Of a stretch of DNA of 64,000 bases, positions 11,218 through 26,331 are shown one piece after another (position 1 is the stretch's first letter; every line of letters starts with the position of its first letter). The notes beneath the pieces were generated by a model. It saw nothing but the letters and a program-made list of their open reading frames with translations, did no database searches and was not told the origin of the DNA. The DNA lies in the IMG/VR virus record IMGVR_UViG_3300025711_000006; one strand, given 5' to 3'. The position numbers and the translations under genes are program-made. Source of the stretch: a virus (Duplodnaviria > Heunggongvirae > Uroviricota > Caudoviricetes).

Positions 11218-11244
11218 TGCTGCGCTTCCTTTGTGGTGAATTCG

Positions 11245-11841: not shown

Positions 11842-11856
11842 AGTCTTTTTACCTTA

Positions 11857-12330
11857 CTAGGCTTCAGTGGTGCCGGAAAGCATTACAGGCCGCTCCCCGC
11901 TTTCGTCTAACAGTTGGAAGTATGCCCCCGATTGGGCATAGTAGAAATCAGATGCCGGACCTTTATCGTCTGACTCGAAAACAATAACCCATTGTTCGCG
12001 GCGATAGTTTCCCACCCATTCCCGCTCAAACTTGCGAACGACGAATTTCTTACTTGCTGGGGGATACTTTTTCCACACGGTCGGATCAACCACTTTATAA
12101 GTGGTGGAGAACATGGACGACGGGTCGCGGATATAGGCAATAGCGCTATTATCTGCAAACTGTACTTTGCAGGTTTCCGCATTCCATACCACATTGGGGT
12201 ATAGTTCCTGGGCCTTGATCCAAAGGGCCCCACCCTCTACGCCAGTGCCTTTAATCTCATTGGCACTAGCTGGGGTAATATCGAAGGCTGCGCAAGTTGC
12301 CGCCATTACTTCCTGGGCATGCGTAGGCAT
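11857..12330 (-). CDS. hypothetical protein (157 aa)
   Basis: ORF. Confidence 0.55.
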   Translation of the reverse strand: MPTHAQEVMAATCAAFDITPASANEIKGTGVEGGALWIKAQELYPNVVWNAETCKVQFADNSAIAYIRDPSSMFSTTYKVVDPTVWKKYPPASKKFVVRKFEREWVGNYRREQWVIVFESDDKGPASDFYYAQSGAYFQLLDESGERPVMLSGTTEA

Positions 12331-12335
12331 GGCCG

Positions 12336-12620
12336 TTACTCCCCTTTCAAGCCGTAGCTTGCCCGCACCTGGGCACGGATTTTAGCGGTTCGCTCTTCAT
12401 AAGCAATGCGGGCAGCTTCACGACGGGCCGGGGCTTCAGCCTCCCATTTTGCCTGCCGTTCGGCAATTTCACCCATTAGGCGGGTATATTCAGGCGTGGG
12501 AGTGGTATCGGCCAGGGCGATGAGTACCATACAGCCGACAAAAACGACCAGGGCGACAACGGCTAGCGGGGCCATTGGGTTAGCGACGAATTCGGCATAA
12601 GTCATTGTCTGTTGCTCCAT
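12336..12620 (-). CDS. small membrane protein (94 aa)
   Basis: One hydrophobic TM helix; first gene after promoter cassette 1. Confidence 0.5.
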   Translation of the reverse strand: MEQQTMTYAEFVANPMAPLAVVALVVFVGCMVLIALADTTPTPEYTRLMGEIAERQAKWEAEAPARREAARIAYEERTAKIRAQVRASYGLKGE

Positions 12621-12668
12621 TGCCTTACTAGGCTTACCGGGGAGGCCCTTTGCCCCGCCAATGGAAGC

Positions 12669-12697
12669 ATTCTAGCGCTATATGGTATCTATAGCAA
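12669..12697 (-). promoter_or_regulatory. repeated promoter cassette copy 1 (TTGCTA-N17-TAGAAT)
   Basis: Minus-strand TTGCTAtagataccatatagcgcTAGAAT, then conserved UTR ...CCTAGTAAGGCA. Confidence 0.55.
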
Positions 12698-12744
12698 CAG
12701 GGGCAGTAAAAATAAATCGCCCAGGCGTACCCTGGGCGCCTGGG

Positions 12745-13440
12745 TCACAACTTCACGCCACGGGCCTGGAACCATTCGCACGCTTCAGCCGTGCCGAACT
12801 CCGTACAGGTCAGTACAAACTCAAGGTTACGCATATAAGCCGCGTAAAACTCGACGGGGGTGGATTCCTGGCCGTTTTCTTGGAAAGTTGCCAGCGTGTT
12901 ATCTGTTGCCTCAAGGTGCGCGGCGTTAACGCACTTTGGAACGCGGCTATAATCCGACCAGTTGCGCAAAATGTAGTCGCTGATTTCCTGGGCCGTCATA
13001 TTTACGGGGCTAACTTCAGCGTCTGCCACGCTATTACTGTAGCCAGCCAGGACACACAACAGACCGCCCAAGGTGAGGCTATTTTCCTGGCAATATTCGA
13101 TTACAGCGTCTGCCGTTTCACGGGTCATAGTGCCAGCGGCTTTAATACGCTCTACCAGACCGCCCAGCGACAAGGTTTTAATACCGCAATAGTTTACAAG
13201 CTGGGCGGCAAGGGTATTAGGGCAGACGCCTTCAGAAACTTGCGGAACCTTGCGAATAACAGTAACGATATGGCTTTTATCATGCGAACGACTGCAATCG
13301 TCGTTAAACAGGACAAGGGTTTTATCCGCTTTGGTGATTACTTTAACGACTTGGCGCGGTTGATCGAACAAACCTACATAGCTATCACCCGGTTTAACGT
13401 CCTGGGCGGTAATCATGATTTTGGTTTCGGTAGTATGCAT
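12745..13440 (-). CDS. hypothetical protein (~232 aa)
   Basis: Listed ORF begins inside the promoter -10; start is more likely MHTTETK with AAGGGGAAT RBS. Confidence 0.55.
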   Translation of the reverse strand: MHTTETKIMITAQDVKPGDSYVGLFDQPRQVVKVITKADKTLVLFNDDCSRSHDKSHIVTVIRKVPQVSEGVCPNTLAAQLVNYCGIKTLSLGGLVERIKAAGTMTRETADAVIEYCQENSLTLGGLLCVLAGYSNSVADAEVSPVNMTAQEISDYILRNWSDYSRVPKCVNAAHLEATDNTLATFQENGQESTPVEFYAAYMRNLEFVLTCTEFGTAEACEWFQARGVKL

Positions 13441-13507
13441 TCTATTCCCCTTTGCCTTACTAGGCGTTTTCAGGGGGCTGGCCCTATTGCCTTGCCCCTT
13501 GCTAAGC

Positions 13508-13536
13508 ATCTTATCGCTATAGGAACGCTATAGCAA
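13508..13536 (-). promoter_or_regulatory. repeated promoter cassette copy 2 (TTGCTA-N17-TAAGAT)
   Basis: TTGCTAtagcgttcctatagcgaTAAGAT, conserved UTR with CCTAGTAAGGCAAAGG. Confidence 0.55.
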
Positions 13537-13770
13537 CAGGCTAGGCAAATTTTTTTTGGGGTAGGCCAGGGCCTGGGCCTGCCGTTCGGCTCCCAGGGAT
13601 GTGAGGTATTCCAGGGCCTTTACCATGCTCCCACCATAGCGGCTTAGCAGGTCGCGCAACTGGCTATCGGTGAAGGGGCCCGCCTGGGCTTCCTGGGCGT
13701 ACTGCCGCATAGCGGCGACCATTGCCAGGGTAACGCCCTGGGTTAGAATTTCCAGCTTACTAGGTGCCAT
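13528..13770 (-). CDS. hypothetical protein (~80 aa)
   Basis: Probable start MAPSKLEIL with AAGGCAAGGA RBS; the longer listed ORF is GC-rich leader. Confidence 0.45.
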   Translation of the reverse strand: MAPSKLEILTQGVTLAMVAAMRQYAQEAQAGPFTDSQLRDLLSRYGGSMVKALEYLTSLGAERQAQALAYPKKNLPSLLL

Positions 13771-13862
13771 TCCTTGCCTTTCGTCCTTACCTGGGCGGGG
13801 GCCGTTCCCCCGCCCTGGGCCGGATTGTAAATCTCGGGCACTAGCTTTGTAAATCTCGCACA

Positions 13863-14075
13863 CTAGGCCCCAGGCCGGGCCCGATTGCCGGGGTAAACCC
13901 GCTTATGATGCACCGTATAAGACGAATAACCGCTATCCCAGGTTACGGCACAATCAAAGATTGAATCCAGGCAAGTTACCGGGGTTCGTTCTTCAATAGC
14001 GGCTAGCATGCTTTGCGTCTGGTCAATTACCAACTTAGCGAACTGGCCTCGGGTTAATTGTTTTGCACGGCGCAT
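13863..14075 (-). CDS. hypothetical protein (70 aa)
   Basis: ORF. Confidence 0.45.
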   Translation of the reverse strand: MRRAKQLTRGQFAKLVIDQTQSMLAAIEERTPVTCLDSIFDCAVTWDSGYSSYTVHHKRVYPGNRARPGA

Positions 14076-14088
14076 AATAGTAATTCCA

Positions 14089-14511
14089 TTACTTAGTTAA
14101 ACGGTAGAGATTGCCGTTAAACTCTAACAGCAAACAAAGTTCTTTGTAGTATTCAGCAAAATGCAACCATTGGCCAAGTTGCTCATTAAGGGAATCCAGA
14201 TAGCTACCGCTGTAGCTTTCAATATTCCACCCGTGGCGGGTTTTAACGTTGCCACGTATGCGCCAGTTTTCTACCCCTACCTTGATAACGTCACGGGATA
14301 CGCTGAAGGGGGCTAAGTCGCGGATATCAACAATTGCCGGACTTCCCGCCACCACAAAGCTAATCAGGTGCTTTGCATCCCGCTTTGCAACTTGCTTTTC
14401 GACCTTATGGGCGTGGGCCAGGAAGTCGCAAAAGGTTTCTTTATAGTTGCGGATAGTGGCGCCCATTGTATGGGCCTGGGTAAACTTATGAGCCAATGAC
14501 ATTGCATTCAT
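14089..14511 (-). CDS. hypothetical protein (140 aa)
   Basis: GTAAGTCAGTAAGGAA RBS element upstream. Confidence 0.55.
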   Translation of the reverse strand: MNAMSLAHKFTQAHTMGATIRNYKETFCDFLAHAHKVEKQVAKRDAKHLISFVVAGSPAIVDIRDLAPFSVSRDVIKVGVENWRIRGNVKTRHGWNIESYSGSYLDSLNEQLGQWLHFAEYYKELCLLLEFNGNLYRLTK

Positions 14512-14579
14512 AGCGGCGATTCCTTACTGACTTACAGCCGACCAGGGAAAGGGCCCAGGGTTTCCCCTGGGCGATTTAC

Positions 14580-15071
14580 TTACAAGCCTAATTCAGCATA
14601 TTTATCGGCACGGCGTTTAGCCGGGGCCAGGATAGTGGCCATTGCTTCACTGTCCGACCAATCCGACATTACTTCACTAGCGCTATTGCCGTATACAAGC
14701 CAGACCTTGCCGACCAGCTCCCCGTCTGCCTTGCGGAAAGCTAAAGTTTCCATATCGGTAGCGTAGATTTCCGCCATAACTTCACGCTCATTAGTAGAGC
14801 GTTTAACCGCCCACTCTTCACCGTCAAAGACGCTAACAGTATGGCCCAGCTTGATAGCGTTGCGGACGGCTGCGCGTACAACTGCCTTTTCCCCAGCGAT
14901 ACGGCGGTCGATTGCCTTATAACTTGCAACTTCAGCGACCAGTTCAACGCCACGTTTAATCAGGCGGTAGGCGTTAGCCAGGGCACGGCCCAGCAACTGG
15001 CGATAGGTGAGGCGGGAACCGGTGGCGCGTTCACGTTTGGCGATGAAGTGAGCGAATTGCATGGTATTCAT
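14580..15071 (-). CDS. hypothetical protein (163 aa)
   Basis: First gene after promoter cassette 3; AAGGAAGCTAAAAAATG. Confidence 0.55.
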   Translation of the reverse strand: MNTMQFAHFIAKRERATGSRLTYRQLLGRALANAYRLIKRGVELVAEVASYKAIDRRIAGEKAVVRAAVRNAIKLGHTVSVFDGEEWAVKRSTNEREVMAEIYATDMETLAFRKADGELVGKVWLVYGNSASEVMSDWSDSEAMATILAPAKRRADKYAELGL

Positions 15072-15134
15072 TTTTTAGCTTCCTTTGCCTTACTAGGCTT
15101 ATCGGGGAGGCCCTTTGCCGTCCCCGTGCTAAGC

Positions 15135-15163
15135 ATTCTATCGCTATAGATCCTCTATAGCAA
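15135..15163 (-). promoter_or_regulatory. repeated promoter cassette copy 3 (TTGCTA-N17-TAGAAT)
   Basis: TTGCTAtagaggatctatagcgaTAGAAT; best match to sigma70 consensus. Confidence 0.6.
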
Positions 15164-15171
15164 CATACTTT

Positions 15172-15381
15172 TTAGAAAATTTGTTTGCAGCCCTTCATAA
15201 AGGGCGACTCCCTACACTGGTAGTCGTTCCCCGTCGTTTGTGCCACCTGGGATAGGTCGGGGTTATCCGGCCTTGCCTGGGCCGCTTGCTGGGCCCTCCC
15301 AGCGGGTTTAAAGCTGGCCAGCCCCTTTGCCCCCAGTAGCACTAAACCCACCGCCAATAGCATTACCTTTAACGCCTTCAA
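15172..15381 (-). CDS. small secreted protein (69 aa)
   Basis: N-terminal signal peptide MKALKVMLLAVGLVLLGAKG. Confidence 0.5.
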   Translation of the reverse strand: MKALKVMLLAVGLVLLGAKGLASFKPAGRAQQAAQARPDNPDLSQVAQTTGNDYQCRESPFMKGCKQIF

Positions 15382-15580
15382 TCGCCCCTCCCCTTACCCT
15401 ACTTACTGCCCTACCTTTGATAGCCTTATGCTACTTAGTGCCACCATATAGCGCAATGCCTTCACCCTCCCCCCAGGCAATGAAAAGCCCCGCCCAGGCA
15501 AGCCCAGGCGGGGCTAATAGTTGTGAAGCAAGCTATCTATTTTTGATCCTGGGGGGCTATGCCCTCTAGCCCCCGAACGG

Positions 15581-15982
15581 TTAGCGGTTGCCGTCACGTG
15601 GCGGCCTTGGGGTTCTAGGGCCCCGCGCTGGGTGCCTGAATTCAGGCTTTCTATTTTCATTGGTGAGGTTGGCGGGTTGGCGTTCGTCGTGGTCATCGTC
15701 CGAACTTGTGCCGTCTTGCTGGTGTTTGATCTCCCTTTCAAGGAAGTCATACAACCCTTCTTCACATTCATCAATGATTTTACGCCACTCGCTAAGCTTG
15801 CCCAACATAGCCATAACGTCGGCCCCGCTGTATTGCACGTTATCGGTATAGATGGGGAGCGGGCAACGTTCCAACTTGACGAAAAAGCCCTTAGCATTCG
15901 GGGCATTCTTGATATGGCGAAACTTAAATTGCCGCTGCAAAATGCTTTGCAGTTGATCCATGGGAATATTACGGGTCGTCAT
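15581..15982 (-). CDS. hypothetical protein (133 aa) with disordered basic C-terminus
   Basis: More protein-like than the overlapping frame 15514-15906. Confidence 0.45.
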   Translation of the reverse strand: MTTRNIPMDQLQSILQRQFKFRHIKNAPNAKGFFVKLERCPLPIYTDNVQYSGADVMAMLGKLSEWRKIIDECEEGLYDFLEREIKHQQDGTSSDDDHDERQPANLTNENRKPEFRHPARGPRTPRPPRDGNR

Positions 15983-15995
15983 ATAGTCACCAATC

Positions 15996-16346
15996 TTAAA
16001 TTTTAATAAGTTCGCCGGTAGTGCTGCGCTTTATTTGTATCGGAACTTTTATTAGGCGCAGTAACCACTCATATTCATAAAGCAACTTTGCTACCACTTC
16101 AGCATGGGGACTAACTAATCCATACTTTGAAAGGTCGCCGGGGGGTATATGTTCGCCCCCGCTTCCCTGGCTTACAACGTGGAATGATGCACTATCCCCA
16201 GCTATACAAAAGCCCTTTAACGTTGCGGGACTTGCCTCTAATGCCTTCCTGGCCTCCTTTTCAATTTCTGATAGCGCAGCTTGTACGGCCTTTAGTAGGG
16301 CTTTATCAACGCGCAGCATGATACGGGTTAGAGCCTTGTTTGTCAT
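15996..16346 (-). CDS. hypothetical protein (116 aa)
   Basis: ORF. Confidence 0.5.
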   Translation of the reverse strand: MTNKALTRIMLRVDKALLKAVQAALSEIEKEARKALEASPATLKGFCIAGDSASFHVVSQGSGGEHIPPGDLSKYGLVSPHAEVVAKLLYEYEWLLRLIKVPIQIKRSTTGELIKI

Positions 16347-16537
16347 GCCTGGGCCCTCCCCTGGCGCCTTTTCAGGGCCTTAATATGGCTTTTCGCCTGC
16401 CAGCGGGAAACGTTCACGGGCAAACGGGTATGAAGCCAGCCCAGGCTAACTACTCTCACAAGCCCATCTAGCAGGCTGGCCACCCCGAAAACAATGTTGC
16501 TAAGGCACCCAGCGGGGTTACGGTTACGCTCTATCAT
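16343..16537 (-). CDS. hypothetical protein (64 aa)
   Basis: 4-nt overlaps on both sides. Confidence 0.35.
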   Translation of the reverse strand: MIERNRNPAGCLSNIVFGVASLLDGLVRVVSLGWLHTRLPVNVSRWQAKSHIKALKRRQGRAQA

Positions 16538-17079
16538 CGCGTGACCTGCCGCACACCTACAACGTCGGCTAGGTGGATGCGGTTAACGAAGTTATTAACG
16601 CAAACAAACCATACCCCCGTAGGCCCTACGCCCTTAGATGCGTTATGGGTCGCAAGCCCTTTAAGGATATAGCCGTGTTTATCCCTATAGCTTACTTCAG
16701 CACGCAAGCCCCGATAGTGGGCGTCGGCAATGAGGCCCCGCCAATAAATATCATCCTTGATAAGTCCCGAGGCGCGGCAAGCCTTTTCCCAATAGCGTAG
16801 GGACCGGGGATCATTACCCGGATGCAAAGAAAGGGTTTTATTCTCCCCGTCTTCAAAGAATGCGCGGTCCTGTATCACTTCAGTGGATAGCCAGCGGGGC
16901 GCACCTGGGAACGTATCACTACGCACGGTAAAGCCTTCAGACTGGATAAGCTCCACCGTTTCACGGAACGTATGGGCGACGTTTTCAAAATCAAAGCCGC
17001 GCTCTTGTACGTCCCCGTTAGCCGCGCTTTCCTCGGTTACAATTTCATACGACTGGGAAAGGATGATAGGCATAATCAC
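16534..17079 (-). CDS. hypothetical protein (181 aa)
   Basis: ORF. Confidence 0.55.
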   Translation of the reverse strand: MIMPIILSQSYEIVTEESAANGDVQERGFDFENVAHTFRETVELIQSEGFTVRSDTFPGAPRWLSTEVIQDRAFFEDGENKTLSLHPGNDPRSLRYWEKACRASGLIKDDIYWRGLIADAHYRGLRAEVSYRDKHGYILKGLATHNASKGVGPTGVWFVCVNNFVNRIHLADVVGVRQVTR

Positions 17080-17738
17080 GCCTCCCCTTTGCGAGCGGCA
17101 CGGGTTTGCAGGTAGTCATAAACTTTATCAAGCCGTTTAATACCTGGGGCCGCTTCATACAGCCAGGACGAAAGCCAGCCCTTGCCGCTGAAGTCTTCAC
17201 ACAAACCGAATTCAGTTTCCTGATTAAAGTCCCCGTGCATTGATTCTTGACTAGCCAGGGCCTCTAACAGCGTGCCCGCCTGATTATGATCCCAATCAGA
17301 GACGGGGCCCCAGTCGGCTAGGTCGTTCGAATAGAACGAATGGAAGCCGCTACAGCTAGTAAACTTTTCCGTTACCAACTGGGCCAGGGATTGGCGGTTT
17401 ACTTTCTGATACAGCCGCTCAAGTTCTGCCCCATCAATGAAGGCAAAAATACGGTCTGTATCAAAGTTGTATTCCCGAGGGCTTACAAGTTTTTCAAACT
17501 TGAGAGTTTCAAGCCCGAAAGCCTGGGCGAATGCTTCAGCGTATGCCTTTGCATAGCTGTCATGCACCTGGGAGAAGTTGCACAAATTGAAAAGGCGTTG
17601 CTCTAGCCCTTCGTTTCGTTGGGTGCCGGTGGCACTGTCCGAAAACATTTGTTCAACGGCATTATCTAGTGCCCCGTCATGCAGGGACTGATAAAAGCCG
17701 GAAAACGGCAGGGTAACGCTATGCGGGCTTAGCTTCAT
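17076..17738 (-). CDS. hypothetical acidic protein (220 aa)
   Basis: ORF; GGAG RBS. Confidence 0.55.
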   Translation of the reverse strand: MKLSPHSVTLPFSGFYQSLHDGALDNAVEQMFSDSATGTQRNEGLEQRLFNLCNFSQVHDSYAKAYAEAFAQAFGLETLKFEKLVSPREYNFDTDRIFAFIDGAELERLYQKVNRQSLAQLVTEKFTSCSGFHSFYSNDLADWGPVSDWDHNQAGTLLEALASQESMHGDFNQETEFGLCEDFSGKGWLSSWLYEAAPGIKRLDKVYDYLQTRAARKGEA

Positions 17739-17818
17739 TGCTCCATACTCCGTAACTTTCGGGACTTACTGACTTACTAAAACATGGTACTTCTACGGGC
17801 TTAGCCCCAATTAAGGGG

Positions 17819-18022
17819 CTAGGCGGCATTCTGTTGCATTCGCAACTTGAGTTCGTAAATTCTTTGCTCAAGGGCTAGGGCTACGCCTTCAGCAACGTCC
17901 GCCCAGGTCTGGCAAATTGTCGCACCCTCCCTTACAAAGCGTTCGTTCTTTGCCTGCCTTTCGCGTGCCGCTTTGGCGCGGGTTTCCAGGCGCTGCAAAT
18001 ACTCTTGATCCGTTAGAGCCAT
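17819..18022 (-). CDS. hypothetical coiled-coil protein (67 aa)
   Basis: ORF preceded by CCTAGTAAGGCA UTR element. Confidence 0.45.
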   Translation of the reverse strand: MALTDQEYLQRLETRAKAARERQAKNERFVREGATICQTWADVAEGVALALEQRIYELKLRMQQNAA

Positions 18023-18147
18023 TCCCTACCCCTTGCCCTACTGGGCGCTTGTGCCTTACTAGGCCGTTTCCGTCTTGCTTGGGCCCAGTCTAGTGGCATT
18101 TTGACTCAAGGTAAAGCCCCTAGACTAGCCTTTTTACGTTTCTTTAC

Positions 18148-18519
18148 TTAGAAGGTCTTTGTGATAGTCACCTGCCCGACCTCACAAGGTACGTCATCAA
18201 ACTTAGTTTCATGGGGCAAATCTTTGTTCCCGTGATAGAAAATTTCATTATCGTCTACCACGTACAGCCCAACTTGCGTACCCTTGCGAACGTTGCAACG
18301 GCAGACGCCGCCGACCAACTGGCTAGTAGTGATTAGCCAACCGTCGTGGGTCCATACGTCGGTATCACGGAACAAATCAAAGTTTTTATCATGCTCATTA
18401 GCACGGATACGCAAATCGGCTTGCGCGTCATTGCGGGACCGGCCCAGGTGTGCGGCGCTGCCCTCCCAAAGGTGGAAGCCCATTTGCAGCCGTTCATAAT
18501 GATCCGCTTTCTTTTTCAC
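18148..18519 (-). CDS. hypothetical protein (123 aa), GTG start
   Basis: Start codon is GTG (plus cac at 18517-18519); AAGG RBS. Confidence 0.5.
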   Translation of the reverse strand: MKKKADHYERLQMGFHLWEGSAAHLGRSRNDAQADLRIRANEHDKNFDLFRDTDVWTHDGWLITTSQLVGGVCRCNVRKGTQVGLYVVDDNEIFYHGNKDLPHETKFDDVPCEVGQVTITKTF

Positions 18520-18554
18520 TACCTTACGTCCTTACCTGGGTTTCTGTTGTGTTA

Positions 18555-18580
18555 ATGCTATAGCGTTTCTATAGAACGCC
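18555..18580 (-). promoter_or_regulatory. divergent variant of the CTATAG-N5-CTATAG dyad element (copy 4)
   Basis: CTATAGcgtttCTATAG upstream of 18519 gene; flanking hexamers differ from other copies. Confidence 0.4.
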
Positions 18581-18603
18581 TTAGCGGGTTAATTCTAAGT
18601 GTA

Positions 18604-18632
18604 CGAAAAAGCCCCGTCAAGGGGGACGGGGC
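18604..18632 (-). terminator. rho-independent terminator (minus strand)
   Basis: GCCCCGTCCCCCTTGACGGGGC hairpin followed by T5 on the minus strand. Confidence 0.65.
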
Positions 18633-18687
18633 TCTATAATAGCACTTTGAGGGCTAGTGTCAGAGAAAACCGACGAAAGCACGGGGC

Positions 18688-18861
18688 CTAATCCGCCCTA
18701 GCCACGTTCTGAGACGCCCAGGAACGGGGGACGCTAATCCGATCAAGGCAAGGGGCGCCCGTGGCTTGTGTGACGCCCTGGGCGGCTTCCTGGCTAACGC
18801 CAGGGCCTGGGCCTGGGATGCACAGCGTTACAACTAACGCGATTTCTGCAAACGGACTCAT
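18688..18861 (-). CDS. small hydrophobic protein (57 aa), below cutoff
   Basis: Strong SD AAGGAG 8 nt upstream of ATG; MSPFAEIALVVTLCIPGPGPGVSQEAAQ... Confidence 0.35.
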   Translation of the reverse strand: MSPFAEIALVVTLCIPGPGPGVSQEAAQGVTQATGAPCLDRISVPRSWASQNVARAD

Positions 18862-18878
18862 CTAGTAAATCTCCTTAC

Positions 18879-19166
18879 TTACTTTCGCCGGGGGTTAGGC
18901 CGTAGGGCCTTGATCTTTTCCAGGGGCGGGCCGTACCCGTCGAACATTCCCTTACTTACCAGTTGGTAAGCGGGGCCCTGTAGCTCTAGCTTGTCATACA
19001 GGGCCTTTACCTGGGCCCGCTCTAGCTCCCCTAGGCCCTCCCTATCTAGCTTGCCTATAAACGCCTTTAGAATGGCGGCAAGCTCGGGGGATAGCGCCTT
19101 AATGTCGAGTTGATCCCCTTTAATCAAGGGGGGCGGTGAAGGCCGTAGCCAGGGCGGTAGGTTCAT
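18879..19166 (-). CDS. hypothetical protein (95 aa)
   Basis: ORF. Confidence 0.45.
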   Translation of the reverse strand: MNLPPWLRPSPPPLIKGDQLDIKALSPELAAILKAFIGKLDREGLGELERAQVKALYDKLELQGPAYQLVSKGMFDGYGPPLEKIKALRPNPRRK

Positions 19167-19333
19167 TACAGCGGCCCTACTCTACCAGTCGAAGCGTACA
19201 GGGCAGAACGGGCCGTTTTGATACGACAAAATAGGCACGGCCCCATACCCTAGCATTTGAAGCGGCACCCAGTCTTTGCGGGTCACACAAAGGCTATGAG
19301 AATCACGGATAGCGTAAACGTACATAAAGCCCC

Positions 19334-19693
19334 CTATTGCGATAGACGTTTGATAATCTCGTCATGCGATAGATTAGCCAGTAATGCGTCCACCCTTGCG
19401 GCTTTTTCACTATCGGCCTTTTCCATTGCTTCACGGGCTTGGCGGTCTTCAGTGGTGGCAAGCTTTCCGGCCTCGGTTAGCTCGGGATCTACGGAAACAT
19501 AAAGGCTAATTTCCCGCCCTCCCTTATCCACAAAAACAGCGCGGCCAGACGCTTTAATCTTAACCGTGAATTGTGACTTTACCAGTCGCTCTACGGTAGG
19601 CCAATCGAACGAACCCGCGAAAGTCCCGCCCACCACTTTAACGGAGTTTCGGCTATCTAGGCGCGTGTGGTAGCAGATGTTTTTGTGAGTCAC
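19334..19693 (-). CDS. hypothetical protein (119 aa)
   Basis: ORF. Confidence 0.5.
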   Translation of the reverse strand: MTHKNICYHTRLDSRNSVKVVGGTFAGSFDWPTVERLVKSQFTVKIKASGRAVFVDKGGREISLYVSVDPELTEAGKLATTEDRQAREAMEKADSEKAARVDALLANLSHDEIIKRLSQ

Positions 19694-19986
19694 GGCTTAA
19701 CCTCCCTTGCTGGGGAACGCTGGGAGAATACGACCTTATCAAAGTAGGCGGATTTAGTAAGCCCGCCATTAACGGGCCGCTTGCGGTAAAGCTCCCAGAC
19801 TTCGATATCCTGGGCCTTACCGTCGCCCAGGTATTCCCCCTGGGCGTCATACTCCACGGTAATGACAGCCGAACGCACGCCATAGTTAGAGACGGTATCA
19901 CCAAAAAGGCGCATCGTCTTAGCGGTGAAAAAATGGGGTTCGTGCCCCGCTGCCTCTACCCTTGCAATAAGTTCTTTAACTTCCAT
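19690..19986 (-). CDS. hypothetical protein (98 aa)
   Basis: 4-nt overlap with next gene. Confidence 0.5.
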   Translation of the reverse strand: MEVKELIARVEAAGHEPHFFTAKTMRLFGDTVSNYGVRSAVITVEYDAQGEYLGDGKAQDIEVWELYRKRPVNGGLTKSAYFDKVVFSQRSPAREVKP

Positions 19987-20061
19987 TGCCTTTCCCTCTA
20001 CCCTGCCGCTTGTATTCTTGCATTAGCCTACCCAGCTTCAGATAGGCTAACCCAATAGCTA

Positions 20062-20247
20062 CTAGCTGTTAACTTCGACCGTATGGCAGTTGGTCACTTT
20101 GTAGCCGTCCTTTTCGGCCTTTTCAATTGCAGCCGTTCGGGCGTTGTCCTTGTCGCGGGCTTGGACACTAACAGGAAGCTTTTTAAACTCCCCGCTTTCG
20201 TCTTGAACCTGCAAAGTTACCTTGTAGCTTGTCTGGTCTGGCTTCAT
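20062..20247 (-). CDS. hypothetical protein (61 aa)
   Basis: ORF. Confidence 0.4.
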   Translation of the reverse strand: MKPDQTSYKVTLQVQDESGEFKKLPVSVQARDKDNARTAAIEKAEKDGYKVTNCHTVEVNS

Positions 20248-20251
20248 TGCT

Positions 20252-20575
20252 TTATTCCCCTATCTTAACGCGGCGTTTAATGAGACGGGATGGGTATTCA
20301 GGTACGTTTGTTCGGTACGCCTGCAAATCCCGCTTGGCTTCTTTGTAGTCGGTGCTGCCTGTTACGTCCTCCCACCGTTGCCCGTGCCCATAGTCCACTT
20401 GAACAATATGTTGAACTTCAGTGGTAGCAGGGCCCCGCGCTTTAGTAACGCGGATATCGGCGGGATACTCCCCACGCTCTACAAGGGATTTCCGCACTTC
20501 ATCGGCGGTAAAGCTACCCTCATAAGTTACCGTATCCAGCAACTTTCGACCGTTATACACTTTAAAGCTGGCCAT
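20252..20575 (-). CDS. hypothetical protein (107 aa)
   Basis: ORF. Confidence 0.5.
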   Translation of the reverse strand: MASFKVYNGRKLLDTVTYEGSFTADEVRKSLVERGEYPADIRVTKARGPATTEVQHIVQVDYGHGQRWEDVTGSTDYKEAKRDLQAYRTNVPEYPSRLIKRRVKIGE

Positions 20576-20578
20576 TGT

Positions 20579-20953
20579 TCAAGCCTCCCCACGCTTAGGC
20601 AACGTTGCAAGGTCTACAACATCACGGATATTACTAATGTCCTGGTAATGGTCATAAAGGGCCGCTTCCACGCCCTCTACGCTTTCCGCCCATACCGTGG
20701 TAGTAATGGCGTAGGTAACGCCCAGGGCCCCAGTAGAGCGCCCGTTAAAGGTGACGTTAAAGCACTTGTAGCCGGTGAGGTCGATAACGTCTACGCACTT
20801 AACAAAGTTTTCGTTTTCGTCGCTGCCCATATTGAAGCGCTGCCCGACAAAGTATTGGCGCGTTTCTTCAAAGGGTACGGCCCCGTTAACGTCGGTGACG
20901 TAGTTATAACGGGGGTTTTCCATGATGACTCTAACGCCCTTGAGACTGGCCAT
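20579..20953 (-). CDS. hypothetical protein (124 aa)
   Basis: ORF. Confidence 0.5.
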   Translation of the reverse strand: MASLKGVRVIMENPRYNYVTDVNGAVPFEETRQYFVGQRFNMGSDENENFVKCVDVIDLTGYKCFNVTFNGRSTGALGVTYAITTTVWAESVEGVEAALYDHYQDISNIRDVVDLATLPKRGEA

Positions 20954-21396
20954 TAATCAAGCCCCCACTTTTCGTTATCATACCCAGGAAGGGCGGGAAT
21001 CAGAATCCCGCGCAACTTATTTAACAGCTTGAATGCCTGGGTTTTCTCCCAGTTGTCGCACTCGCACGACTGATAAGCTAGGCAATCAATCAATTTGAGC
21101 GCCTGCAATACCGATACCGGGGCAGCTTTCAAATCAAGAACAACTTTACCTGTAAACGGTTCTTGCGAAACATCCGAACGATGCTTATAGCAATGATTAT
21201 AAGAACGGACGTTTTCAGCCATAAGCAAGTTTGCTTGCTGTTGCGCCGTTTTCAAGGCGTTCATTACATAATGATATGCCTCGGGATCATCCTGATATTG
21301 CCACGGGTTAACGCTACCATTGTAACGACGTTCGGCGTTAAACGCGGCCTGCAAAATGGCGGAAATAGTTTTATCGCTAACGACGAAGGCAGACAT
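20953..21396 (-). CDS. hypothetical protein (147 aa)
   Basis: ORF. Confidence 0.5.
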   Translation of the reverse strand: MSAFVVSDKTISAILQAAFNAERRYNGSVNPWQYQDDPEAYHYVMNALKTAQQQANLLMAENVRSYNHCYKHRSDVSQEPFTGKVVLDLKAAPVSVLQALKLIDCLAYQSCECDNWEKTQAFKLLNKLRGILIPALPGYDNEKWGLD

Positions 21397-22106
21397 TATT
21401 TAGCCCCCAGGTTATCGAATTCATCCGCCATATTTTGGAACTGCCCGAAAAGGTGGGAAAGTTCTTTAGGGCCGCTTGCGTCTTGATCGGCATAATCTGC
21501 CTTAAAAAGGTATTCATGCAGGGCACGACTACCGGGCACGCCCCAGGCTTGGAACTTATCCCCGTAGCCGTAGAGGGCAGAGTTAGGGCGGATAGATCCA
21601 TGTTTGATTTGAAGACGGCCCGCGTCCGTCCATTCGCAACGGGCGCCCATCTTTTTAAAGTTGTGCCGGTAGTCGGCACCTTTCGGCTCGCTTACCTCTA
21701 GCAAAATTTCGACAATACGTCCGCTTTTTGTGCAGTCATCCATGCGATGGAAAAACTTTACTTTAACCTCAGTGCTGGCCCCGCTGAAACTGGTATCAGT
21801 GATAAGGCTAGCGGCCCAGTCGTCGCAATAGTCTTCTTTATCAATGCCAGGGATAAGGGTCATTGGCTTGAAAAGCAACGTCGGGCCGTTGCGGTATTCA
21901 GTGAAGGGAACAACGGTAAACAGCTTGAGGGCTTCCAATGCTCCCCCCAGGCCCTCTACTGGAATGCGGGCCGTCGTTTCCCCATCCTGGGAAAAATGCA
22001 CAAAAGACGGGGCCAGGGGCAGCAAGGTCGCCACGGCGTGCTGTAGCTCAAGGTCGGCCAGTTCGCGGGCGTGCTTTGCCTTCAGCGCTTCGATACTTTT
22101 TAACAT
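21396..22106 (-). CDS. hypothetical protein (236 aa)
   Basis: First gene after promoter cassette 5; AAAGGAGAT RBS. Confidence 0.55.
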   Translation of the reverse strand: MLKSIEALKAKHARELADLELQHAVATLLPLAPSFVHFSQDGETTARIPVEGLGGALEALKLFTVVPFTEYRNGPTLLFKPMTLIPGIDKEDYCDDWAASLITDTSFSGASTEVKVKFFHRMDDCTKSGRIVEILLEVSEPKGADYRHNFKKMGARCEWTDAGRLQIKHGSIRPNSALYGYGDKFQAWGVPGSRALHEYLFKADYADQDASGPKELSHLFGQFQNMADEFDNLGAK

Positions 22107-22152
22107 TTTATCTCCTTTGCCCTACGGGGCGCTTCCTTTGTGTGTAGCCCGC

Positions 22153-22181
22153 ATTCTATCGCTATAGAATCTCTATAGCAA
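22153..22181 (-). promoter_or_regulatory. repeated promoter cassette copy 5 (TTGCTA-N17-TAGAAT)
   Basis: TTGCTAtagagattctatagcgaTAGAAT. Confidence 0.6.
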
Positions 22182-22189
22182 GCGTTTAT

Positions 22190-22471
22190 TTACTCGGGGT
22201 CAGCTACGCGGGTAACGCGCGTAACGGGGGTGGGTAGCTCCCCCTCAAAATGCATAAGCCCGCCCGTCTGTTGCAAGCCCTGGCCCCCGAACGTTTGAGG
22301 CTGGCGGTAGGTGGCGTTAACGGACGCTTGCAAGGCTTGCATTTTGCCCCCTGATTCCCCGGTGAAAATCACGCTTTCACCGATAGCCAAAGCATCCATG
22401 ATAGCTTTGCGGCTACGGATGGCCGGGGGATATGCGATATTGTGTTTACTGGTCACTCTCAGGGACTCCAT
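22190..22471 (-). CDS. hypothetical protein (93 aa)
   Basis: ORF. Confidence 0.45.
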   Translation of the reverse strand: MESLRVTSKHNIAYPPAIRSRKAIMDALAIGESVIFTGESGGKMQALQASVNATYRQPQTFGGQGLQQTGGLMHFEGELPTPVTRVTRVADPE

Positions 22472-22730
22472 AAGCAGATTCGATTAGGGTGGAACAATGG
22501 GCGCATTGTAGCGGTTCGCCCTCCCAATGGATATCACAGCCTGCCGCGTTCCACCCATCACGCAAGCCCGCCCGCGTTGCCTTGCTAATCAGGCGGTAAT
22601 TTTCCTTTGCGCACTTGCTGCAAAGGCACTCCCCATCCGCCATTACCAATACTTTCGGGTAGCCCCCAGGGAAGGCGTTAGGCTGGCGAATGAATTCCTT
22701 TACAGCTTGTACAACTTCGTTACGTGCCAT
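22446..22730 (-). CDS. zinc-finger protein (94 aa)
   Basis: CLCSKC ... CAHC Cys4 arrangement. Confidence 0.5.
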   Translation of the reverse strand: MARNEVVQAVKEFIRQPNAFPGGYPKVLVMADGECLCSKCAKENYRLISKATRAGLRDGWNAAGCDIHWEGEPLQCAHCSTLIESAYGVPESDQ

Positions 22731-22741
22731 ACGTGGCCCCT

Positions 22742-22951
22742 TTAAACGTAGTAGACGGTTTTGAATTGACGCTGAAACTTAGCGTCATTCTGTCCGTAAA
22801 AAGTATCGGTGCGAACGGCCCCCAGTTCAAAATCACGGTAGGCGTTTTCGCCAATTTCCCGTAACTTACCCTCGGGGCTTACAACGTGATACGTGACTTC
22901 ACCGTCGCTAACTCGCACACGGCGGCAAAGTTCTTTAGACTTCAGGGCCAT
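22742..22951 (-). CDS. hypothetical protein (69 aa)
   Basis: ORF. Confidence 0.45.
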   Translation of the reverse strand: MALKSKELCRRVRVSDGEVTYHVVSPEGKLREIGENAYRDFELGAVRTDTFYGQNDAKFQRQFKTVYYV

Positions 22952-23514
22952 TAGTTGCCCACCTTATCCAGGGGAGGCAAGCCCGCGCTTTTCATCATGC
23001 CGCCGATATGTTCGATAACCTGGGCTTTCAAAGCCTTCAGCGTTTTTTGTTCGGGAATGCCGTCTACAAGGCCCGCGCATTGGATACGTTGCACCCACTT
23101 GCCGAACGCTTTAACGCCTACTGCAATGGTCCCGCCTACGGCCTGGGGGTGGGCTACCTGATAAGTACAGCTAAGCCATTTATTGGTTTTCGCGTTGTCG
23201 GCTACCGCCTGGGCGATTTGCTCCACGGTCACTGTATTAACCTGGGGGACTACAGGGGCGGCAAACTTGCCCTCTACCTTGTAGCTTGCCCCGGCACTCT
23301 CAGACCATTTAAACGACAACAGTGATTCATCGCTGAAGCTAACCAGCATGAAAGTACAGCGCCCGCTATCGTTGCGCTTTTCGCTTTCCAGGTGGGCGGC
23401 TTCGAAGTGATAGCGTTTACCGGCGTAGTCTACGCAATAGCCCCCGGTCAAGGTAACAGCGGCCATGGGCTGGCTTACAATGTCGTGAACCTGGGCGGCA
23501 ATGGTCTTTTGCAT
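22951..23514 (-). CDS. hypothetical protein (187 aa)
   Basis: ORF. Confidence 0.55.
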   Translation of the reverse strand: MQKTIAAQVHDIVSQPMAAVTLTGGYCVDYAGKRYHFEAAHLESEKRNDSGRCTFMLVSFSDESLLSFKWSESAGASYKVEGKFAAPVVPQVNTVTVEQIAQAVADNAKTNKWLSCTYQVAHPQAVGGTIAVGVKAFGKWVQRIQCAGLVDGIPEQKTLKALKAQVIEHIGGMMKSAGLPPLDKVGN

Positions 23515-23589
23515 GGTTGTAGCTCCGTTGGTGCCATACGTGGCGTGGGGTACTTCTACGGGCTTAGCCCCAATTAAGGGGCTAAAGGT

Positions 23590-23745
23590 TATGACGCTTT
23601 CTTGCTAATGTCGCGGATGAAACTCTCTTTTGTCCTGGCCGTGGATTCCACGCCTAGGCGCTTTGCAAAGGCTTTCGCCTCCTTTAACGTCACAGCGTTG
23701 GTATCAAGTTTAGTTATCAGCAATTGCAAACTTTGCCGGTCCATT
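23590..23745 (-). CDS. small protein (51 aa), below cutoff
   Basis: Perfect SD AAGGAGG upstream of ATG; MDRQSLQLLITKLDTNAVTLKEAKAFAKRLGVESTARTKESFIRDISKKAS. Confidence 0.35.
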
Positions 23746-23746
23746 G

Positions 23747-23995
23747 CTAGCCCTCCTTACTTGCGAGATTAGGCCGAACATGCACGGGCGTAGCCTTGAT
23801 AACCGGCACCGTCCCCAGGCGGTAGGAATCCCCGAAAAGGCTAACGCCCATATCAGGACACTTTTTCAAATCGCCAGGGCACACGGTTTTCAAGTGGCCG
23901 TTAACCTCCACCGTATCGCCTGGGCGAATAGTGTTAACGTGTACCGGTTCACGGTCGCACAAAATGCCGTCGATTGTTACGCGGGTAGCGGCCAT
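23747..23995 (-). CDS. hypothetical protein (82 aa)
   Basis: ORF. Confidence 0.45.
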   Translation of the reverse strand: MAATRVTIDGILCDREPVHVNTIRPGDTVEVNGHLKTVCPGDLKKCPDMGVSLFGDSYRLGTVPVIKATPVHVRPNLASKEG

Positions 23996-24543
23996 TATTC
24001 GGCCACCTTATAAGCCTTGCTAAGGCCGTATTCCTTGAGGAAATCAGGGGCGCTAAGTTTCGCCGCTCCATTGCAATAATTGTCGCGGTAGTCGGTAAAG
24101 TTCGCATACAGGCGGGACAATTCAACTTTGCTAAGCTGGCCCATTGCCCGCCACTTAGCGTCAAAGTATTGCGGCCCGTATACCTCCTTAGCGGCCTGCA
24201 AAGCGGCCAGGATAATGCGGCGTTCGTCTTCAATCGGTGCCGCGCTTTCCTGGGTATCGGTGCCGTCTAATGCCTCCCCCAGGTATTCCAGGCGGATAGT
24301 CATATGTGAAACACTGGTGACTACCTTAGCCGGGGAAAAGGCATCCACCATAACGCCCATTTGCAAATCGCGCACAGCGGCGGCAACGTGGGAAAGGGGA
24401 TCAAGCGGGCCCAGGTCTAGCAGGTTGCGGACTTCACTGATAAGCAAAGCGGCTTCTTTAGCGGCCTCCTTATATTGCGCATCCACCACAGCGGCACCGC
24501 CCAGGGCGTCAAGGTTCCACAAAGTATCCTTAATATTCATCGC
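23995..24543 (-). CDS. hypothetical protein (~183 aa)
   Basis: Listed start 24618 overlaps the promoter; start is more likely MNIKDTLWN at 24543 with GGAG RBS. Confidence 0.5.
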   Translation of the reverse strand, partial: AMNIKDTLWNLDALGGAAVVDAQYKEAAKEAALLISEVRNLLDLGPLDPLSHVAAAVRDLQMGVMVDAFSPAKVVTSVSHMTIRLEYLGEALDGTDTQESAAPIEDERRIILAALQAAKEVYGPQYFDAKWRAMGQLSKVELSRLYANFTDYRDNYCNGAAKLSAPDFLKEYGLSKAYKVAE

Positions 24544-24599
24544 TTGCCTACTCCGTTGCTGCCCTACTGGGCGGGGTTGTCTTGCTTCGATAGGCGTTA

Positions 24600-24628
24600 C
24601 TCTATCGATATAGATCACCTATAGCAAG
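24600..24628 (-). promoter_or_regulatory. repeated promoter cassette copy 6 (TTGCTA-N17-TAGAGT)
   Basis: TTGCTAtaggtgatctatatcgaTAGAGT. Confidence 0.5.
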
Positions 24629-24639
24629 CCCCGTTGCGA

Positions 24640-25281
24640 AAATCTTTGCTCCCCTTCCTGGCGCCTCCCAGGACTGCCCCAGGTTGGCCCCCAGGGCCTG
24701 GGCTTGCGTAGGCATATAATGAAGGGAACCCGCTCCCAGGTAAACCAGGGCGGGCGCCTGGGCTGGCCAGGAAAATAAATCTAGCCGGGGCCTTGACCTG
24801 GGGCCTTGTGCTATATAATCTCTATAGCAGTAGCGGGAACGTAGCCAGGCGAAAGCGCCCAGGTGGATACCGGAGTTCAAGGGGGGAGTGTGGGCGCTAT
24901 TTAGATCGTTAGTTAGCTAAGCAACTGAATCGTTAGTTAGCTAATCAAGTATACTGGCGGGGTGTACAGGGGGTGCCGCCCGACTTGGAAGACTTTAGCC
25001 CATTGGCCCGGATCATTCCAGCGACCCCCCTGTAGCGCAAACAGTCTACCCCCTGTAGCGACAACTAGCTAGACCCCCTGTGAGGAAACCGGGTAACTAC
25101 CCTACCCCCTGTGATGGAGTTTTTGAGTACCCACTGTGAGGGAATTTTTGAGGAAGTGTGCGAGATTTTCATATTGGAGGGAGCTTACCCCCTTCCACTC
25201 TCTTGAATGAAAGCATATAGTGCCAGCATCTGAGTGGCAAGCTAGTGTCACAGATTCCATTGACGGGGAGTAAGAGCGGTA
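24640..25281. promoter_or_regulatory. complex control region between leftward early operons and rightward mvaT-like gene
   Basis: Degenerate 7th cassette copy (~24803-24830) reading TTGACC-N17-TAATCT on plus strand; 2 x ATCGTTAGTTAGCTAA direct repeats; 5 x CCCCCTGT(A/G)(G/A) boxes at ~25 bp spacing. Confidence 0.45.
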
Positions 25282-25665
25282 ATGAGTAAGATTGCACAGG
25301 TAAAGAACATCGAGGCACAGCTCAAAGCCCTTCAGGCACAGCTTGCAGCTCTCCAGGCAGACCCAGAGGTAAAGGCCGACCAAGAGTTCGAAGCAGAGCT
25401 TCGCCAGTTGCTCGCTAAGCACAGTCGCTCCCTGGTCGATGTGAATCGAGTGCTCGACCCCAACTATAAGCCTGCTAAAGCTCCCAAGGTGAATGGAGCT
25501 GGCCCAGGCGTAGCTACCAATCCGAAGCCTAAGCTCCGTACATGGCTCAACCCGCACACTCAGGAAAAGGTCGAGTCTACCCACGGCAATAACAAGGTTC
25601 TGAATGCTTGGCGGCAGCAGTGGGGTAAAGAAGCTGTAGCGAGCTGGAAGTTACCAGACGAGTGA
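25282..25665 (+). CDS. MvaT/MvaU-like H-NS family nucleoid-associated protein (xenogeneic silencer)
   Basis: 127 aa; N-terminal coiled coil (LKALQAQLAALQ) and C-terminal KLRTWLNPHTQEKVESTHGNNKVLNAWRQQWG matching the MvaT DNA-binding domain as I recall it. Confidence 0.75.
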   Translation: MSKIAQVKNIEAQLKALQAQLAALQADPEVKADQEFEAELRQLLAKHSRSLVDVNRVLDPNYKPAKAPKVNGAGPGVATNPKPKLRTWLNPHTQEKVESTHGNNKVLNAWRQQWGKEAVASWKLPDE

Positions 25666-26025: not shown

Positions 26026-26331
26026 TTACACCTCTTCAGGCGTGACTCTCAACTGGGTTTCCATCTGTCCTGGGTTGAACTCGCAGTCAAGCGTGTAGCC
26101 CGCCCGGACCAGCATCGTCATCAGCGTGTCAATGTTGAAGTCTTCTAGCTGGCCCTGCATGAGCCGGTTAACGTCTGCCGCGTCCACGTGCATCTCATTT
26201 GCCGCCAGTTGGTCTGACCACTCCCTTACCCGGATGTGGGTAATGAGCTGCATCCCGAGCTGCGACCTTACCTGCTTCAGGTTGTAGTCAACCGGATCAT
26301 TCGAGAACAGCTTGAATAGGTTCTGCCCCAT
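26026..26331 (-). CDS. XRE-like HTH DNA-binding protein (candidate repressor or antitoxin-type regulator)
   Basis: 101 aa; C-terminal WSDQLAANEMHVDAADVNRLMQGQ...TLMTMLVRAGYTL fits the HTH_XRE pattern; CCCCCTGTGG box at its RBS. Confidence 0.5.
   Translation of the reverse strand: MGQNLFKLFSNDPVDYNLKQVRSQLGMQLITHIRVREWSDQLAANEMHVDAADVNRLMQGQLEDFNIDTLMTMLVRAGYTLDCEFNPGQMETQLRVTPEEV

Follow-up and report, generated by a model that had tools for sequence, protein, structure and literature searches.

Repeated promoter cassettes with a putative common operator, present in two genome-wide versions, in an accessory gene block of an uncultivated lambda-tailed phage with plasmid-maintenance genes

In T4-like myoviruses, conserved units of about 100 bp known as promoter-early stem-loop (PeSL) cassettes combine an A/T-rich tract and a strong sigma-70-like promoter with a stem-loop, often GGGG..CCCC, that is followed by a Shine-Dalgarno sequence (SD) and an ATG. 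Many copies, all in one orientation, are scattered among the ORFans of hyperplastic regions, where recombination between them shuffles genes, and the gene gains and losses that distinguish close relatives have breakpoints within cassettes (Arbiol et al., 2010, PMC2839356; Comeau et al., 2014, PMC4122927). Repeated repressor-binding sites are known from Cluster A mycobacteriophages, which carry 20-30 operators and stoperators; stoperators are asymmetric 13-bp sites bound by a monomer, and the site consensus of related phages changes with repressor specificity (Mavrich and Hatfull, 2019, PMC6550527). In the phage-plasmid P1, the C1 regulon comprises 22 asymmetric 17-bp operators dispersed genome-wide (PMC8546580). 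Here we analyze 64,000 nucleotides of the Caudoviricetes record IMGVR_UViG_3300025711_000006 (this whole stretch is referred to as the window), in which a cassette consisting of a promoter, an embedded dyad, and a 5' untranslated region (5'UTR) is repeated through a block of ORFan genes. The cassettes combine two kinds of element already known, early promoters under operator control and regulatory linkers of the PeSL type, and their logic is classical.

The original prediction, made from the letters of the window, was that near-identical cassettes of this kind tile the block, and this was confirmed. The dyad CTATAG-N5-CTATAG, allowing at most one mismatch, occurs seven times in the window (at 12678, 13517, 15144, 18558, 22162, 24608, and 24811) vs. 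0.14 times expected from dinucleotide-preserving shuffles, and none of 100 shuffles reached seven. All seven dyads are confined to 12.6-24.9 kb, and 11 of the 13 CTATAG hexamers of the window are located inside dyads. An nhmmer profile of the promoter part retrieved exactly five full copies in the 64 kb, all on the minus strand (E 1.5e-10 to 2.5e-8), as well as two dyad-only sites and nothing further. The TTGCTA-N17-TAGAAT hexamers had been placed correctly in these five copies: on the minus strand, the -35 boxes (TTGCTA) start at 24627, 22181, 15163, 13536, and 12697, and are followed by a 17-nt spacer and a -10 box (TAGAAT, TAAGAT, or TAGAGT) ending at 24599, 22153, 15135, 13508, and 12669, respectively. 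Two further copies had been listed as variants, at 18555 and 24803. Dyads are present at both, but the one at 18558 lies downstream of a separate promoter and the one at 24811 has no minus-strand -10. Six of the seven dyads are associated with a promoter. The block and its promoter-operator elements are arranged as follows.

10474-24540, minus strand: putatively controlled block of 34 co-oriented genes in six promoter-led units of 7, 10, 8, 4, 1, and 4 genes
24811-24827, minus strand: dyad-only operator CTATAG-agatt-ATATAG, 203 bp (centre to centre) upstream of P1, no minus-strand -10
24538-24670, minus strand: cassette P1; -35 at 24627-24622, dyad at 24624-24608, -10 TAGAGT at 24604-24599, 12-nt hairpin at 24572-24561, ATG at 24540; orthologues in L144, L145, and L146
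22104-22224, minus strand: cassette P2; -35 at 22181-22176, dyad at 22178-22162, -10 TAGAAT at 22158-22153, 12-nt hairpin at 22130-22119, ATG at 22106
18558-18627, minus strand: terminator-promoter composite with downstream operator; hairpin 18627-18611 includes the -35 TTGACG, -10 TAGAAT ends at 18592, dyad at 18574-18558, gene start at 18519
15069-15206, minus strand: cassette P4; -35 at 15163-15158, dyad at 15160-15144, -10 at 15140-15135, GGGG..CCCC leader stem, 12-nt hairpin at 15098-15087, ATG at 15071
13438-13580, minus strand: cassette P5; -35 at 13536-13531, dyad at 13533-13517, -10 TAAGAT at 13513-13508, leader stem, 12-nt hairpin at 13465-13454, ATG at 13440
12603-12740, minus strand: cassette P6; terminator at 12738-12718, -35 at 12697-12692, dyad at 12694-12678, -10 at 12674-12669, leader stem, 12-nt hairpin at 12633-12622, ATG at 12605

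In the five full cassettes, the dyad forms the core of a 23-bp palindrome (9-5-9), TTGC-TATAG-N5-CTATA-GCNA, situated between -35 and -10. TTG and both hexamers are kept in five or four of the five copies, and the N5 spacer in two or three. The modules follow a constant order: A/T tract, promoter with dyad, GGGG..CCCC stem (in three of five), 12-nt hairpin, SD, and ATG. An A/T run of 8-11 nt is found within 25 nt upstream of the -35 in each cassette, and terminator-like hairpins precede two promoters, at 12738-12718, where the T-run is also the A/T tract, and at 18627-18611, where the hairpin overlaps the -35. The dyad at 18574-18558 occupies about +12..+28 of the separate promoter TTGACG-N17-TAGAAT (18620-18592), and the one at 24811-24827 overlaps a possible plus-strand TTGACC-N15-TATAAT. 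None of the 34 block genes has a Pfam domain. Of ten block proteins tested, three matched PHROG families of unknown function and none had a match in PADLOC. Megablast and blastn against GenBank phages gave no DNA-level match to the block or to a cassette, and searching viral, genome, and metagenome collections for exact patterns of the dyad and promoter returned single chance matches only. Unrelated viral contigs were found to carry 3-5 tandem copies of GCTATAG with 11-bp phasing (L015, L028, L030, L038, L063, L071, L072, and L119, mostly at about 37% GC; L029 and L082 at 53% GC), in eight loci as two clusters about 860 bp apart. These arrays, possibly iterons, are a different element from the dyad.

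Relatives of the phage were found via homologues of two of its proteins, a XerC-like recombinase and an MvaT-like protein, in Logan and IMG assemblies. They comprise seven further genomes (eight with the window), mostly contigs of about 100-107 kb, with the gene order of the window. Scans of viral contigs seeded with gp21396-22106, with RepL, or with the plus-strand open reading frame (ORF) at 31275-32756 gave no matches. The genomes were assigned by dyad to type A (the window, L141/L144, which are one contig, L145, and L149) or type B (L142/L143, L146, L147, and L148). The relatives correspond to the Logan contigs SRR33868134_3623, SRR23059833_881827, and SRR8512225_628 (type A) and ERR6050569_16103, ERR11269299_5031, SRR25400227_43229, and SRR20074257_10007 (type B); the IMG/VR records 3300046542_000168 and 3300046492_000163 are relatives as well. 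Type A relatives have orthologous cassettes of identical hexamer type with differing N5 spacers: between orthologous type A pairs, the hexamers differ at 9 of 204 positions (4.4%) and the spacer at 38 of 85 (44.7%; Fisher p = 9e-16), indicating that the hexamers are under purifying selection and the intervening bases are not. A reading of the cassettes as remnants of a duplicated mobile sequence, considered at the outset as the outcome that would speak against a regulatory function, does not apply, because selection acts at particular positions and not on the whole repeat.

At positions orthologous to the type A sites, type B genomes carry the operator TTGC-AGCAT-N5-ATGCT-GCAA, in cassettes that retain TTGC, the 17-nt spacing, TAGAAT, the leader stems, the hairpin, and the SD. 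Across seven genomes, one orthologous cassette (P4, 15069-15206) could be aligned without gaps, and the A/B change was confined to 2 x 5 bases. Each genome has one operator type at every site found. For each of the seven window sites, one or more relatives have an orthologue. The first six have switched to type B wherever a type B locus spans them, including the promoter-less upstream site, which in L146 is of type B with the flank 'cgttcccgct' kept, and the site at +12, whose composite layout (18558-18627) is orthologous in L141, L146, and L142 with a dyad type that follows the genome. For the seventh site, c12669, the relatives sampled showed no type B orthologue. The operator type is independent of recombinase phylogeny, since the recombinase of L149 is only 53% identical and yet this genome is of type A. 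A concerted, genome-wide change at discrete positions strongly implies a trans-acting, sequence-specific regulator that co-evolves with its site, and heteroimmune phages differ from one another in this manner (PMC6550527). Hexamer versus spacer conservation and the concerted swap thus both support what had been proposed from the window, namely sigma-70-type promoters with an embedded operator for one common regulator.

We consider it likely that the block is driven by six host-type promoters sharing a common operator for one phage-specific regulator, most likely a repressor, within cassettes that serve as PeSL-like junctions. The cassettes would then be standardized units for expressing a ~14-kb accessory (early-type) gene block, carried by a siphovirus-like phage of ~105 kb that also has plasmid-maintenance genes. 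Host sigma-70 RNA polymerase is predicted to start at the six promoters, five of them TTGCTA-N17-TAGAAT-like and one TTGACG-N17-TAGAAT. A dimeric phage-encoded DNA-binding protein would read the two inner pentamers of the 23-bp palindrome and, when bound, would exclude or block RNA polymerase, turning off the whole block together, most likely in the carried (lysogen or plasmid) state, or as an early shut-off. The upstream site, 203 bp from the first promoter, may help via looping or may control the plus-strand TTGACC-N15-TATAAT, both of which are speculative.

From sequence, we infer that the cassettes are active promoters and that they are repressed rather than activated, because they look self-sufficient and near consensus, the site fills the -35/-10 region contacted by polymerase, and one site lies downstream of the start. 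The sign of the effect is the point at which an activator has to be weighed: the dyad could be a class II type site overlapping the -35, as for lambda CII, through which a phage factor would turn the block on. Such overlap is seen in five of the seven copies, TTGCTA matches TTGACA at only four of six positions, and the concerted swap shows that a trans factor exists and not the sign of its effect. However, TTG, the 17-nt spacer, TAGAAT, and the upstream A/T tracts make up a promoter expected to work unaided; one conserved site is at +12..+28 of the better promoter, TTGACG-N17-TAGAAT, where activators do not act; and another (24811) has no promoter on that strand. We therefore regard activation as unlikely.

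The resemblance to PeSLs bears on whether a dedicated protein is involved at all. Like PeSLs, the window cassettes have sigma-70-like boxes and an upstream A/T tract (five copies, as judged by sequence) and a stem-loop and SD/ATG at the 3' end (GGGG..CCCC in three of five, mini-hairpin with SD and ATG in all five); they are repeated in one orientation among ORFans, with hypervariable gene content and three homology breakpoints at cassette or hairpin edges. They fall outside the PeSLs by their host genome, because the window phage is not T4-like: it is lambda-tailed and siphovirus-like (GpJ, tape measure, E-type capsid) and carries ParA and RepL. They further differ in that their leader stem-loops lie in the 5'UTR without a U-tract, and in that the spacer holds a conserved 23-bp palindrome in two genome-wide versions, whereas PeSLs have not been described as operator-bearing. 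The cassettes might still be purely recombination linkers, with the dyad as a DNA or RNA stem-loop (cruciform or attenuator) that no dedicated protein reads. T4-like PeSLs are built from like parts, flank ORFans, and in many cases have their stem-loop placed between -35 and -10; breakpoints occur at cassette edges here as well, and the dyad is able to form a 6-7-bp hairpin. Against this, the A/T-rich 6-bp stem is weak, the hexamers are kept as sequence, with the mismatches ATATAG and CTATAT left uncompensated, and only two discrete versions exist, uniform in each genome, where selection on structure only would yield many variants, as it has in the RNA hairpin described below. A linker function without a reading protein is for these reasons most improbable.

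What was found matches an immunity-type operator: a palindrome within or just downstream of the core promoter, whose sequence is under selection and changes in concert. As in Cluster A phages, a short site is repeated over a transcribed region, with some copies in promoters and at least one downstream, where elongation would be blocked, and site types change genome-wide between relatives; in contrast to Cluster A, the window sites are palindromic (9-5-9), number only seven, and are nearly all promoter-associated, and no homologue of the L5-type repressor was seen. The likeness to P1 consists in plasmid-maintenance genes (here RepL, ParA, and a tyrosine recombinase) and in one repressor proposed to silence many operons via a repeated operator. 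The operators of the window differ from those of P1 in being palindromic and confined to one 12-kb block, plasmid carriage is here deduced from genes, and a C1 homologue was not detected. The window sites are not asymmetric, mostly promoter-free sites of the stoperator or P1 type, as they are palindromic and six of seven are at promoters. A lambda-tailed phage with plasmid genes in which PeSL-like linkers carry both an embedded operator of swappable type and a covarying hairpin near the SD is not found in the PeSL, stoperator, and P1 papers cited here (PMC2839356, PMC4122927, PMC6550527, PMC8546580), although no search was aimed at the combination itself.

Genes around the block, together with one block gene screened as a possible regulator, are as follows.

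2565-2774: XRE protein
3704-4231, plus strand: Arc-like tandem ribbon-helix-helix (RHH) protein
8423-9304: XerC-like tyrosine recombinase, adjoining the block
18148-18519, minus strand: gp18148-18519 (123 amino acids), second, weaker candidate regulator, directly downstream of promoter and operator 18620-18558
25282-25665, plus strand: MvaT/MvaU-family silencer, divergent from the block (NCBIfam equivalog, 101.8 bits vs. a cut-off of 75)
26026-26331, minus strand: HTH_37 protein, 101 amino acids (Pfam E 2.7e-13)
27901-28638: ParA
29542-30036: RepL

In order to find the protein that reads the dyad, dyad type was treated as a phenotype and proteins were screened for tracking of A vs. B. The original prediction had named two candidate repressors, the proteins at 26026-26331 and 2565-2774, and only the first withstood the screen. 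Each of the three type A genomes spanning the HTH_37 position encodes the protein (the window, L144 at 67%, and L145 at 90%), which is absent from L146, the only type B genome that covers this position, as well as from all sampled type B DNA. On this thin evidence, it is the best candidate for the regulator that would bind the type A dyad. Because operator architecture is shared, a homologous type B regulator is predicted somewhere. For the second candidate, gp18148-18519, four alignment columns separate A from B, vs. at most one in 34 other partitions; no known domain was detected in it, and a single-sequence AlphaFold model was unusable (predicted local distance difference test, pLDDT, of 35).

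The XRE protein was rejected: it does not track type, being 45% identical in the type A L141 and 60% in the type B L148, with no discriminating columns. The BrxR-like winged-helix protein at 6834-7187, gp2167-2373, and gp2366-2560 were also discarded, as all are missing from the type A L149. The locus is reminiscent of Arc/Mnt (P22 immI) in its two self-palindromic subsites one helical turn (11 bp) apart and in encoding an Arc-like protein. It differs from that system in that the putative DNA-reading beta-strand residues of this protein (KFV(I/V)R and (R/K)FV(I/V)R) vary regardless of dyad type in the eight genomes, on which grounds the Arc-like protein was rejected; its target is not the dyad. 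The protein contains two RHH units in one chain (DKFVIRAY and DRFVVRYP), forming a covalent pseudo-dimer, and is kept in all eight genomes.

Since the screen yielded candidates only, the dyad might instead be read by a host protein, or be the target of the XerC-like recombinase as an integron-like attachment site, the two types then reflecting different hosts or recombinases. That a tyrosine recombinase gene adjoins the block and that gene content varies at cassette edges would fit such a site. Tyrosine-recombinase core sites typically have a central spacer of 6-8 bp, and that of the dyad, at 5 bp, is shorter. Recombinase identity does not track dyad type (53% to the type A L149 vs. 75-78% to type B), only two columns discriminate, a number that other partitions reach as well, so that the recombinase was rejected as the specificity factor. 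The fixed phasing of the dyad, placed exactly between -35 and -10, points to transcription. A host protein or recombinase as the reader is, in our judgment, very unlikely.

Several observations weigh against a phage-encoded common repressor of this kind. The correlation of HTH_37 with type is based on three type A genomes and one type B genome only; the HTH_37 proteins of the window and L144 have different presumed recognition helices despite identical hexamers; no dyad is found near the promoter of HTH_37, and thus there is no sign of autoregulation; and in the type B L146, no replacement gene occupies its position. The -35 hexamer overlaps the operator, and hence part of the conservation of the operator is owed to the promoter itself. 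At the RNA level, the outer GGGG/CCCC stem of the leader is eroded in some relatives. Finally, lysogeny or plasmid carriage is suggested by gene content only, and no isolate plasmid or prophage relative was found.

In the region between the block and the divergent MvaT-like gene (24880-25280), ACAGGGGGT occurs four times plus one inverted copy, and TAGCTAACTAACGAT twice. The ACAGGGGGT / TAGCTAACTA arrays were considered as the true partner of HTH_37 and proved uninformative, as they are kept in both types, including L146, which lacks HTH_37. Because they are kept in relatives of both dyad types, the ACAGGGGGT and TAGCTAACTAACGAT arrays belong to a different, shared function. The MvaT-like protein is full-length and kept in relatives at 56-92% identity. 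Its gene suggests a Pseudomonas-type host and, possibly, silencing or counter-silencing.

A conserved leader of about 60 nt with a GGGG...CCCC stem had been described as a common feature of the cassettes. The stem is present in three of the five (12669, 13508, and 15135) and not in all, and the well-supported RNA element is instead a 12-nt hairpin next to the SD. The inner leader stem shows one compensatory pair in 15 orthologous leaders (CG in 11, GC in 4) and is never broken. Leader stems are probably not terminators, given their 5'UTR position without a U-tract. Nine exact copies and one near-copy of the 12-nt hairpin, GCCNNGTANGGC, were counted where 0.6 would be expected, and every one is on the minus strand within the block. 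The five cassette-led genes have it immediately 5' of their SD, as do the genes with starts at 23514, 22730, 18022 (two tandem copies), and 11841. The copies that stand apart from cassettes are the following.

23533-23544, minus strand: stand-alone hairpin GCCACGTATGGC, upstream of SD and ATG 23514; a homology breakpoint with a type A relative lies just after it
22726-22737, minus strand: stand-alone hairpin GCCACGTATGGC, including the ATG (22730) of gene 22446-22730
18035-18064, minus strand: two tandem hairpins, GCCTAGTAAGGC and GCCCAGTAGGGC, upstream of ATG 18022
11851-11862, minus strand: hairpin near-copy GCCTAGTAAGGT with a G-U pair closing its stem, upstream of ATG 11841; homology breakpoint at 11842

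The hairpin, of the form GCCNNGUANGGC, consists of a 4-bp stem and an NGUA loop. Its loop-closing pair covaries among the window copies (UA 5, CG 3, AU 2; 100% paired). A covariance model searched against nine loci (seven genomes plus the window) gave 35 matches at E < 0.01, and each of them lies on the block's sense strand; the 33 distinct sequences among hairpins are 98.5% paired, with closing pairs UA16/CG12/AU5, which none of 500 shuffles reached. Rfam 15 at the gathering threshold had no match over the whole window. The hairpin is a separate RNA-level module, independent of the dyad. Our best guess is that the hairpin, which in three leaders lies behind the longer stem-loop, probably stabilizes or insulates the 5' end and standardizes translation initiation; it may also be a protein-binding or processing site. 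An exact 36-nt repeat at 17786-17821 and 23549-23584, intergenic in the block at both places, contains the hairpin TAGCCCC-TTAATT-GGGGCTA without a U-tract and is a third conserved intergenic element of the block. In the distant phages L007, L008, and L010, which encode a homologue of gp17076-17738, a repeated 12-bp palindrome of their own, CTGTAWTTACAG, is located just 5' of ribosome-binding sites; it is analogous, but unrelated, to the intergenic motif of the window.

Since the cassettes are near-identical, they constitute homologous junctions at which genes can be inserted, lost, or replaced, and the gene content of the block does vary between relatives. Homology of the window with a type A relative breaks at 23508, 12612/12606, and 11842. 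All of these points fall at the 3' boundary of a hairpin or cassette, and past each of them a gene has been inserted or replaced. It is conceivable, although doubtful, that the cassettes amount to a plug-and-play gene-capture platform of phage-plasmids, with the GCCNNGUANGGC hairpin as the recognition element of a dedicated RNA-binding or RNA-processing factor. If this were true, an incoming gene that recombined at a cassette would gain a strong host promoter, the resident immunity operator, and a standard 5'UTR in one step, would be silenced with the block, and would swap with immunity type. This would represent an integron-like system of homologous regulatory linkers with built-in immunity control outside T4-like phages.

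The locus provides a multi-promoter regulon in an uncultivated ~105-kb phage family, with an operator readable directly from comparative genomics, where the signal is unusually clean. The A and B specificities differ only by 2 x 5 bases in an otherwise identical promoter, and would constitute an orthogonal promoter/operator pair once the regulators are found; heteroimmunity groups are predicted within the phage family. The PeSL idea of regulatory cassettes as linkers for ORFan shuffling is carried beyond T4-like myoviruses to a phage that has a lambda-like tail and plasmid genes, and a small, covariation-supported 5'UTR hairpin without Rfam match is added. Current understanding is not overturned by this, as operator-controlled early promoters and heteroimmune variants are classical.

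The phage nature of the 64-kb window is evident from its tail and capsid genes, which encode a GpJ-type tail-tip protein of 3853 amino acids, a lambda-type tape measure, an E-type major capsid protein, and an S49 protease. At the DNA level, the window had no match among GenBank phages. The nearest capsids are those of the Pseudomonas phages phiPMW and SYP, at 37% identity, and a search of PLSDB plasmids with the capsid protein gave matches at 25% identity only. Beside these lambda-like genes, the set of ParA, RepL, XerC-like, and MvaT-like proteins suggests a phage able to live as a plasmid. Between the HTH_37 gene and parA (26840-27018 and 27360-27410), about 20 head-to-tail 8-bp units (ACGCATNT / ACTCATCT) look like an iteron or centromere (parS-type) array of the ParA/RepL module. 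The roughly 1.1 kb that separates the recombinase gene from the block (9305-10473) lacks a convincing ORF. Its DNA is conserved in relatives, with tblastx matches in all frames, and it could serve as a target of the recombinase (attP/dif-like) or specify a non-coding RNA. Long ORFs are present on both strands at 31275-32756. The minus-strand ORF (31341-32645, 434 amino acids) is annotated as Band_7/SPFH in relatives, and the 493-amino-acid plus-strand ORF is for that reason probably spurious. A tRNA scan of the window gave no matches.

The 3853-amino-acid ORF had at first pointed to an N4-like phage carrying an RNA polymerase and promoters of its own, which was rejected as the ORF is the GpJ-type tail-tip protein. 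In this protein (39459-51020, minus strand), the GpJ N-terminal domains and the C-terminal tip-fibre domain are about 3000 residues apart; the middle has coiled-coil-type matches (SlyX, DUF16, and CCDC90), and the whole protein is about three times the length of lambda J. Over the whole window, certain 6-bp palindromes are avoided: CTGCAG (PstI) is absent vs. 26 expected, CTTAAG occurs once vs. 18, and ATATAT is absent vs. 7, which probably represents restriction evasion. The type B operator of the relatives includes CTGCA.

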